A stretch of 63,819 nucleotides of DNA, counting the filler, from Reclinomonas americana ATCC 50394 (Eukaryota): NCBI GenBank assembly GCA_048213135.1. It is 7 parts of 6 records of this genome, joined end to end, with 100 filler letters (N's around TTAATTAATTAA, not from the genome) between each part and the next. Parts side by side here need not be neighbours in the genome. Positions count along the whole stretch, not along the records: positions 13,137 to 27,779 come from PS015564.1; 6 more parts are not named here. One strand, 5' to 3'. Under the pieces are notes generated by a model. The model worked only from the letters and a program-made list of their open reading frames with translations. It made no database searches and had not been told where the DNA came from. Numbering within the stretch: position 1 is the stretch's first letter; every line of letters starts with the position of its first letter. Shown here one piece after another: positions 14,098-17,000 of the stretch. A program made the position numbers and the translations under genes.

Positions 14098-17000
14098 ATG
14101 GTGCGTGTCTCCTCACTCACACACTCTCTGCCATACACTCGCTCACTTTCCCTGTGTCTCCGTGCAGTCATTCCCTGTCCACTTTTGCCTCGCCGACGGT
14201 ACCTCTCGTGTCGCGGTGCCCGGTGTCACTGGCGACGTGCGTCTGTGCGACCTCGTGCAGCGCGGCTCGGATGCGCGTGTGCGTGTGCGCTCGGATGTGG
14301 TGCTGCGGTCGTCAGATGAATCCACACTGCGAGAACTTGGCATCACGGCGGAGACCACGCTGAAGGTGGATGTGGAGGGCAGCGGGTGCGTTGTTTGTGT
14401 GTCTGAGAGGAGAGAGAGAGATGTGCATCTCATCTGCTTGTGTCTGTTTGTGCGAGAAGATCCAACAACTACAATCTTTTGCAAGATGCCATGGGCATTG
14501 TCAGAGACGCACTGGCTGCCAGACTCCGTGCAGCGCTGCCTGCATTCTGTCGTACACATCCCACCATGCTCGTGGATGAGGCGTGGTGCTGCAAGACTGT
14601 ACGGGATATTCGTGCTCGGTTGGTGGTGGTGTTGTTTTACTTCATCCTCTGCTTCTCTCTCATCAACTAGGGTGTGTGCGCTCGCAGTTACAAACCCGGC
14701 GGCAATCACGTGTTCTTGCAACACAATGAGCAGCGGGCTCATGTGCTAACGTGGAAGGCTGCATTCGATGCGGATTCCTCCAGTGCCCCGCCGTGCCCGC
14801 CGTTCGACTTGACGGCACTCTGCGCGATTCTGGTGAATGGTGGATTCGTGGAGGATGACGGCAGCTCTCACTTCCTCCTCTCTTCAGATGAGGAGGTCAG
14901 TATTGCTTTTTCTTCCCACTACTCGTCACGATGTTCATCATAAGTGCAGCGCCGGGCGGTGGAGACGCTGCGTGACGTTCGCAACGCTGTTGGCCATCGC
15001 CCAAATGGCCAGCCAGTCGCTGTCGCCGATGATGTCACCGACCTGCTCGGCGATGGTGTTGTTGAGGGACGTCTTGTGACGGCTGTCTTATCGCTCCAAT
15101 TGCAACTCGACGACGCCCCGCTCGCCCACTTTCGCACCTTGTTGGAAGATATTCGAACCAGTGCGTCTGATGTCAATCACTTTGCGTCTTTGCATCCAAC
15201 TAGAGCAAACTCGCCGTCGCAGGACGACATCATATTTCTGATGCGGAGTTCGCCGCATTGCTTGAGAGCTACAGTGAACGCGAGTCGTCAGCATTCCACG
15301 AGGACGAGAACCTGCGCAAGACGTTGCAGATGTACGTGCCATTGCTTACAACAGTCGGTGGCGAGTCTCGTGATCTGCTGTCGGAGGTCGACGCATTCGT
15401 TGCCGACGACAACCGCGCCCGCGTGTTGTTATTCCTCGGCAACAGTGGAGCTGGCAAGACGACAGCAATGACGGTGATGGCTGAACACGCTTGGCGAGCA
15501 TGTCGAGAGGGGCGCAGTCGGCGGTTGCCGCTGCGGGTGCCCTTGTCGGCGTTGCGTGACGTCGAGCACTGCATGCTAGAGGAAGTGCTCCCAGTGACAT
15601 GGCCAGAGGCTGCAGTGCAGCGCGTCAAGCAGAGGCCGCTGTTGTTGCTGTTGGATGGGTATGACGAGCTGTACCGTGAGATCAATCTGATGGACACGGC
15701 GCAGGTTTGTTCTTGTCGATGTTGCTCATGTGACAGCTTGTTGACTGATCAGTGTGCATGACCAGCTTCGAGGATGCGCGGATGTGAAAGTGATTGTGAC
15801 ATGCCGTGCAGATTATGCATCGGGCATGGGTTCAGGTGGAACCGATTACCGTCGCTTCTTTGTTCCCAAACACGGCAGTGGTCGTGCGGACTTGCAGCTG
15901 TTGGTGTGGCGCACGGTGGAGCCGTTCACTGACGCTCAGATTGATGATTATCTTCAACATTTTGTCACGCACCAATGTGCGGAGTGGCAGTCTGCGTGGG
16001 AATATCGTCGTGCGCTGCGTGGCATGCACGGAGTGCAGATGCTGATCACCAATCCGTTCATGCTGTCGGTGGTGGTGCAAGTGTTGCCGCAGTTGGTGGC
16101 GAGTGACACGATGGAGAGGCCGACTCGGCGTGATGTGTTTGACCGATTCATTCGACAATGGATGGCGAGGGAGCAGAAGAGGCAGACTCGCCTTGGTGCG
16201 GAGCGTGTACCAAGAGGGGAGACGTGCCTTGCGTTCTGTGAGGGACTGGCGCGGTTGATGCATGAGAGGAATTTGGTGCGAGCAGGGTTTGAAGTACAAG
16301 CGAGTGGCGAGGATGTGGCCGAGCTCGGTGGCGCACCCACTGCTGCAGTGGTTGCTGCTGCAACCGCAGCAGTGCAGGAGCGTCCGTTTGACAAATTTTT
16401 TGGAGATCGATTCCAGCATGTGCGAGTCTGCTGTCCGATTGTGCGACGATATGGCACGACGCAGTGGGGATTTGTGCACCTGTCGTTGCTGGAGCACTGT
16501 GTGGCACGGCATGTGTTTGCGTGCTAGACATGGGATGGGGAGAGGAGATTGACGGTTCAAGATGTGCAGCAGCATGTGTTGGGAGTGCGATTGCTCAATG
16601 ATCGACCTTCGTTGGTGGAGCAAATGGCCGAGGTGGTGCGACGATCACCTCGATTGCAAGCGAGGCTGTGGGAGGTGATTGAGATGTCTCGGGAGGTGGA
16701 TGAGGAGCGAGTGGTGACGGCAGCGGCGAATGCAGCAACAGTGCTGTGTGTGGCACAAGTGTCGTTCAGTGGGCGAGATCTGTCGGGTGTGCGAGTGAGG
16801 GGTGCGGATTTGAGGGATGCGGTGATGCACAAAACGGTGTGGAGGGGAGCGGATTTGCGAGGAGTGAATGTGTGCATGGCGTATGCGAGGGAGGCGGATT
16901 TCAGAGGAGCGCATGTGACGGATGTGAGGTGGCCGAGGAAACAGGAGTTTAGACACTCCAGTATAGTCTATGCCGTTGCTGTCACGCCTGATGGTCAGTA

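Follow-up and report, generated by a model that had tools for sequence, protein, structure and literature searches.

Paralogous NACHT-WD40 receptor genes of Reclinomonas americana carry a constrained N-terminal domain with a candidate HEPN motif

In a stretch of DNA from Reclinomonas americana ATCC 50394 (assembly GCA_048213135.1; 63,819 nucleotides (nt) with filler, seven parts of six records joined end to end, hereafter the window), we found two paralogous seven-exon genes, copy A on the plus strand and copy B on the minus strand. Alignment of the copies at the DNA level and a coordinate-based gene model gave both the same order of parts: a short N-terminal region, a candidate helical domain, NACHT, pentapeptide repeats and WD40 repeats. 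Both genes code for a STAND (NLR-like) receptor and come from a eukaryote with short introns. The candidate domain is under purifying selection and has an R-N-x3/4-H motif in both copies; we put the probability that it is a highly divergent, orphan effector of the HEPN superfamily at about 0.5. The coding domain and the gene architecture are real and solid. As a ribonuclease (RNase) the domain is a candidate: the proposed enzymatic role draws on a single short motif, and the weak signals beside it probably depend on it too.

Domain architecture of the two gene copies

The duplicated segment (14070-17098 against 50845-47813) was 81.9% identical over 3094 alignment columns. Introns were GT...AG in all 12 instances across the two copies and measured 54-75 nt, and the spliced coding sequence was divisible by three in both (4164 nt in A, 4629 nt in B). 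From copy A to copy B, exon lengths differed by 21, 0, 0, 9, 0 and 12 nt and intron lengths by 5, 7, 11, 9, 1 and 14 nt; identity was 80-88% in exons and 62-82% in introns. When three parts of the protein were searched against the window with tblastn, only copies A and B were found.

Copy A opens with an inferred start codon, an ATG that ends exon 1 (14098-14100, plus strand) and stands directly before a GTGCGT donor; the ATG/GT junction is kept in both copies, and the frame runs on into exon 2. The counterpart exons of copy B span 50813 to 45797 on the minus strand. Exon 2 (14168-14385, plus strand; 50510-50748, minus strand, in copy B) encodes the N-terminal region, which in copy A comprises 73 amino acids (aa; SFPVHFCLADG...VDVEGSG) and matched no Pfam family; the ratio of nonsynonymous to synonymous substitution rates (dN/dS) for this exon was 0.22. 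Across the copies this region runs to 73-80 aa (...DVRLCDLV...ESTLRELGITAETTLKVDVEG), copy B having a 7-codon insertion, and judged by eye it is possibly beta-grasp or ubiquitin-like. Residues 1-74 of copy A as a whole were without a Pfam match, and the candidate domain follows at residues 75-266 (192 aa), encoded exactly by exons 3-5.

A 62-nt intron separates the domain exons of copy A from the NACHT exon downstream. This exon 6 (15223-15704, plus strand) encodes a linker and the first half of NACHT, which matched PF05729 at E 4.4e-9 (36.8 bits vs a cut-off of 26.7). The Walker A motif GNSGAGKT (15438-15461) and the Walker B motif LLLLDGYDE were invariant in the alignment of the two copies. 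The remainder of the NTPase module lies in exon 7 (15766-18648, plus strand), together with the pentapeptide repeats (PF00805, ~16759-16863; E 2.1e-7 in A, 6.6e-8 in B), at least 12 WD40 repeats (PF00400, ~16954-18430; E 2.5e-130 over 12 stretches), a C-terminal tail and the TAA stop codon. A 253-aa stretch between NACHT and the pentapeptide repeats matched no Pfam family. The corresponding exons 6-7 of copy B (45797-49689, minus strand) encode NACHT, pentapeptide and WD40 repeats and end in TGA; a run of N at 46592-47266, an assembly gap, interrupts the WD40 array. The genes thus combine the properties of NACHT STAND proteins: a profile match above the cut-off, Walker A and B motifs, and a C-terminal repeat (sensor) region.

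The 42-aa WD40 units were near-identical, with entropy above 2 bits only at unit positions 16, 17, 19 and 35 (16 clean units). A ligand-binding surface undergoing diversification would be expected to show this pattern, and the repeats resemble receptor repeats that undergo concerted evolution and diversification. In fungal WD40 units of the HET-E/HET-D type, variation likewise falls at a few hypervariable positions. At the nucleotide level, units at 16954-18430 (plus strand) and 45990-47950 (minus strand) were 72-86% identical, both within and between copies.

For the WD40 block at 17737-18408 (plus strand), 438 of 506 candidate bacterial stretches were confirmed, the best at 60% identity; the block was 39-60% identical to WD40 proteins of Gemmatales, cyanobacteria and actinomycetes (loci L002-L080). 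In five such bacterial genomes, the profile of the candidate domain reached a best E of 0.45, with one genome of the five giving anything at E<=10, and the NACHT P-loop exon scored at most 22.4 bits, with two of the five at E<=0.01. The likeness looks like a shared WD40 consensus and not like transfer of the whole gene.

The constrained domain ahead of NACHT

A sequence-only reading of the window had described, in both copies, a DZIP3-type HEPN domain split over three small exons with an intact catalytic motif. Reading of the sequence and translation of both strands reproduced the peptides, coordinates and strands that it gave. Exon 3 of copy A (14460-14618, plus strand) carries the first part of the domain, (G)SNNYNLLQDAMGIVRDAL...VRDIRA(R), or NNYNLLQDAMGIVRDALAARLRAALPAF...VRDIRAR in full, and was 87% identical in amino acids to exon 3 of copy B (50284-50442, minus strand; ANNFVLLQDAMGIVRDAL..., with ANNFVLL). 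The middle part is encoded by exon 4 (14688-14895, plus strand; YKPGG...PPFDLTALCAILVNGG...SSDEE, in longer form YKPGGNHVFLQHNEQRAHVLTWKAAF...PPFDLTALCAILVNGG...SSDEE), 86% identical to its copy B counterpart (50018-50225, minus strand; YKPGG...FDLTALCAILVNGG...ASEVE), which holds FDLTAL. Exon 5 (14950-15160, plus strand; RRAVETLRDVRNAVGH...EDIRT) carries the last part and was 83% identical to that of copy B (49753-49954, minus strand; RRSVESLRDIRNSVVGH...EDIRT). Within it lie the candidate catalytic motifs, identified by translation and by alignment of the copies: RNAVGH in copy A (Rx4H, 14980-14997, plus strand) and RNSVVGH in copy B (Rx5H, 49904-49924, minus strand).

In copy A the introns at the 3/4 and 4/5 junctions are 69 and 54 nt long. 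The division into three exons held up, as the GT-AG introns, the contrast between exons and introns in length and identity, and dN/dS all agree with it. One boundary had to be moved: the first inner intron had been placed directly after CCKT, and its donor is GTTGGT at 14619, which makes VRDIRAR part of the coding exon.

Nei-Gojobori comparison of A with B gave the domain a dN/dS of 0.142 over 188 codons (dS 0.555); the NACHT P-loop exon stood at 0.099 and downstream parts of the gene at 0.17-0.26. We conclude that purifying selection acts on the domain. R, N, G and H of the motif are kept in both copies despite nearby indels, as the sequence-only reading had stressed; in an exon that is 83% identical between paralogs, such retention is weak evidence.

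A second Rx6H sequence, RYKPGGNH, is kept in both copies across the junction of exons 3 and 4 (14616-14709, plus strand). This segment is rich in proline and glycine and is probably a loop.

HEPN membership and its alternatives

HEPN domains are defined, in the excerpted text of PMC3710099, by an Rx4-6H sequence closing helix 3, in which a polar residue, most often N, D or H, follows the R; the same text describes a four-helix core with an acidic residue in helix 2 (Ex3[KR]) and metal-independent RNase activity that relies on R and H. Both RNAVGH and RNSVVGH conform to this published rule. The position directly ahead of NACHT also points to HEPN, as do the following observations.

When the 70-aa motif exon was compared with the ESM Atlas, the matches listed were headed by Csm6 HEPN clusters at ranks 1-3 (0.85, 0.85 and 0.84), with HEPN_Apea at ranks 4 and 8 and, at rank 15, DUF4145, itself counted as HEPN in the available part of PMC3710099. 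A common family or clan was present in nine of the ten best matches that had a family. In Pfam, HEPN_AbiU2 (PF18734) appeared below threshold in all three motif-bearing pieces of copy B (E 0.23, 0.14 and 0.028), and for the 38-aa piece of copy B around the motif it was the sole family at E<=10. Two low-confidence AlphaFold2 models were all-helical and placed the motif where a predicted helix (163-177 of P0001, the in-frame read-through of copy A) ends on its C-terminal side, with a loop after it.

The DZIP3 assignment fared worse than HEPN membership in general. Exon alignments do show the blocks N[FY]..L, FD[IL]T.L and RN..GH in that order in both copies, an order that may be the signature of the DZIP3 family. 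The DZIP3 profile PF18738 itself matched none of the 11 pieces searched against Pfam at E<=10 (three copy A exons, P0001, the copy-B read-through and six slices). These pieces were single exons or read-throughs with 18-23 intron-derived residues and X at stop codons, so a weak true match may be lost and the outcome does not exclude the family; HMMER filters also discard most matches above ~0.1, and the null result therefore means no match better than that. Because PF18738 did not match, and because no relative was found although the databases hold many animal members, we rate strict membership of the DZIP3 family as doubtful, well below membership of the HEPN superfamily. Taking active and inactive forms together, we consider membership of the superfamily even to slightly favoured.

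Several results weigh against HEPN membership of any kind. No HEPN family was found in any of the eight copy A pieces, and the best score for a HEPN profile, from the 38-aa copy-B piece and PF18734, was 14.3 bits against a cut-off of 26.8. Noise matches (HicA_toxin, YcxB, ThiS, PHD_pln, Stress-antifung, DUF7233 and DUF7542) reached E-values like those of HEPN_AbiU2. NCBIfam and PADLOC returned no family for five pieces each. Among PDB sequences, the exon-5 profile retrieved only a dockerin (E 0.89) and the domain profile nothing, and phmmer with P0001 against 1,835,955,588 representatives found no protein at E<=0.001. A word-indexed homologue search, in which a null outcome is weak evidence, gave 430 candidates for exon 5 with none at E<=0.01, and 8000 scored candidates for the domain profile with none at E<=10; for the NACHT P-loop exon, the same search gave 4534 candidates with none at E<=0.001. 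When the spliced A/B domain was compared by hhalign with six AbiU2 sequences, the probability was 0.05% and the aligned stretch lay away from the motif; the six were cyanobacterial, from six of 201 genomes sampled in one phylum. At curated thresholds, no HEPN profile matched the single exons and read-throughs scanned and no structure match was obtained, formally the outcome that the sequence-only reading had named as counting against it.

The supporting signals are also of limited weight. Atlas scores below 0.9, with 116-128 shared features and a recognition value of 1780, are weak and serve as a lead only; the middle exon (exon 4) gave no usable Atlas match. The Atlas and AbiU2 signals probably key on the same motif, and are then not independent of the hypothesis. 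The AlphaFold2 models (mean predicted local distance difference test 42.2 and 34.7) provided no usable structure. Of the three domain exons, the motif exon had the highest dN/dS (0.175), and all indels of the domain fall within it, including one inside the motif, between R and H. When the domain was shuffled 20000 times, RNx3-4H arose in 914 (4.6%), R[NDH]x3-5H in 5058 and Rx4-6H in 16834. Taken alone, the motif is weak evidence for HEPN. What stands of the HEPN reading is a constrained helical domain with R-N-x3/4-H at the effector position, and Atlas neighbours of the motif exon that are mainly HEPN families.

Two metagenome searches contributed no homologue. A scan with the alignment of the NACHT P-loop exon gave 145 pattern matches, none confirmed. 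The sole locus found with a further alignment (A4) was spurious, a 15-aa match seeded by the search pattern, and a tblastn search using the whole spliced protein brought up no other match there.

The domain could instead be a lineage-specific helical effector or adaptor of another or a new fold, in which R-N-x-x-x-H is coincidental and no RNA is cleaved. We regard this as quite possible. It would account for the lack of any HEPN profile, sequence or structure match at accepted thresholds, for a motif that chance produces in 4.6-25% of shuffles (the stricter the definition, the fewer), for an indel inside the motif between recent paralogs, for a motif region that is less conserved than the blocks YKPGGNHVFLQHNEQRAHVLTWKAA and VTDLLGDGVVEGRLVTA, and for a middle exon without an Atlas look-alike. 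It does not predict that the Atlas neighbours of the motif exon should be coherently HEPN families, with no mixture, or that AbiU2 should be the only Pfam family for the copy-B motif piece; it also sits poorly with the preferred N after R, with a motif that the low-confidence models place at a helix end, and with the occurrence of HEPN at this position in STAND proteins in the available parts of the literature. An intermediate explanation is a HEPN fold without nuclease activity, acting as an RNA-binding or oligomerisation module in at least one copy, and it is suggested by the unequal R-to-H spacing of the paralogs (Rx4H in A, Rx5H in B). The excerpted text of PMC3710099 describes HEPN families in which activity or residues of the motif have been lost. 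Both copies retain R, N and H, however, and spacings of 4 to 6 occur side by side in the DZIP3-like family of the oyster in the part of PMC9646362 available; we consider an inactive HEPN fold improbable.

It is also conceivable, though very improbable, that one or both genes are decaying pseudogenes whose motif has no present function. The observation behind this is an in-frame TAG at codon 681 of copy A (16525-16527, plus strand), where copy B reads GAG; the motif is intact in both paralogs, as the sequence-only reading had it, and the whole genes are not demonstrably so. A reassigned TAG codon is unlikely: at the conserved ...CTLL tail, gene A ends in TAA and gene B in TGA, which argues against a code change and leaves an allele, an assembly error or a nonsense mutation of recent date. 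Against decay, 706 codons stay open beyond the TAG, through the pentapeptide and WD40 repeats, dN/dS is 0.10-0.26 in every segment, including 0.26 over 149 codons past the TAG, copy B is open throughout save for the assembly gap, and all 12 splice sites are intact. The TAG could be a recent nonsense mutation, the end of a truncated isoform lacking the sensor or an assembly error; if it is real, the product of copy A would be an effector plus NACHT with no sensor.

For the HEPN effector, we infer the fold, dimer-dependent activation, RNase activity and an immune role, following what is established for STAND proteins and HEPN RNases in the excerpted text of PMC3710099. A ligand would bind the WD40 sensor, upon which the NACHT module would oligomerise in a nucleotide-dependent manner and bring the N-terminal domains together. 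Paired R-N-x3/4-H motifs could then form a metal-independent RNase site, and cleavage of RNA would lead to translational arrest or cell death. A broader proposal is that the domain is the founding member of a HEPN family not recognised so far, or of a wholly new effector fold, in the NACHT-pentapeptide-WD40 receptors of a non-animal eukaryote. We think this somewhat unlikely; if it is true, an RNase-armed STAND design arose or survived outside the animals that have DZIP3-type HEPN-NACHT genes. At 192 aa, the domain is a small candidate for a new HEPN-type RNase, and if a confident fold or an enzymatic result confirmed it as an RNase, it would represent a new and strongly diverged HEPN family within a eukaryotic STAND receptor.

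Genomic surroundings and known systems

The window consists of ordinary nuclear DNA of a eukaryote, with genes for Brix, TauE, TRAP-delta and cytochrome b5, two open reading frames with LRR_6 repeats and one tRNA-Gly, which was the only RNA found in the window by Rfam and ARAGORN. One of the LRR frames, 704 aa long with LRR_6, LRR_1 and LRR_4 repeats (19073-21184, minus strand), faces the 3' end of copy A in convergent orientation; the second LRR_6 frame lies at 59330-60271 (minus strand). NACHT was not found in three adjacent frames that were scanned. Spacers rich in microsatellites and many runs of N occur across the window, among them long CT/GA microsatellites at 52000-52400 and elsewhere that translate as SLSLSL.... 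Paired 44-base runs of N, 12 bases apart, are present at 13037-13136, 27780-27879, 37790-37889, 56076-56175, 59279-59378 and 62227-62326; they adjoin larger runs of 290-890 bases and look like masked repeat units or scaffolding gaps. Strand skew was strong in 2-kb windows, with AT skew up to 0.53.

We know of no pentapeptide linker in fungal NACHT-WD40 NLR genes. Those of the HET-E/HET-D type resemble the present pair in having NACHT followed by near-identical WD40 units, as described in the available parts of PMC12222747 and PMC4986451. The word HEPN occurs 0 times in the fungal NLR surveys among the matches listed.

HEPN_AbiU2, an abortive infection family, shares features at the motif. The copy-B sequence SVESLRDIRNSVVGHRDQPVAAAD aligned to positions 120-143 of the PF18734 profile, and in AbiU2 (RDKxIAH), as in copy B, five residues separate R from H. 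The match of copy B is below threshold, and copy A has none. Bacterial HEPN-STAND fusions (Anantharaman et al. 2013, PMC3710099, in the part available) share the overall plan of an N-terminal HEPN or HEPN-like effector, a STAND NTPase and repeat or sensor domains, whereas the present genes are spliced and eukaryotic.

A further likeness in layout is to the DZIP3/hRUL138 HEPN-NACHT proteins of bivalves, cnidarians and amphioxus. In the available text on these, an R-N-x-x-x-H helical domain lies just N-terminal to NACHT, WD40 repeats are possible at the C-terminus, the genes are duplicated and the R-to-H spacing varies among paralogs (PMC9646362, PMC3710099). The same sources, as excerpted, describe HEPN ahead of NACHT/STAND in animals and bacteria, and DZIP3-like HEPN fused to NACHT, TPR, Death or LRR at the N-terminus of immune-type proteins; in both Reclinomonas copies, too, the domain is directly upstream of NACHT. 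For the pearl oyster, the part of PMC9646362 available reports Rx4-6H in 194 of 202 DZIP3-like HEPN proteins and Rx4H in 131, with Asn typical after R; it lists more than 50 NACHT proteins with an N-terminal DZIP3-like HEPN, and some NACHT proteins with C-terminal TPR or WD40. A pair with Rx4H in copy A and Rx5H in copy B therefore falls within the known range, and this architecture has been seen before. The present genes differ from these animal proteins in their additional N-terminal region and pentapeptide repeats, in leaving PF18738 unmatched in 11 of 11 pieces and in having no phmmer relative at E<=0.001 in 1.84 billion proteins. Their introns of 54-75 nt, too, probably do not point to an animal. 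Among the matches listed, the excerpted literature that names PF18738 or HEPN_DZIP3 concerns animals. Nuclease-armed STAND/NLR receptors recur in the innate immune systems of bacteria and animals; if the HEPN reading is true, a spliced eukaryotic gene pair with a relative-less effector extends that design to another lineage.

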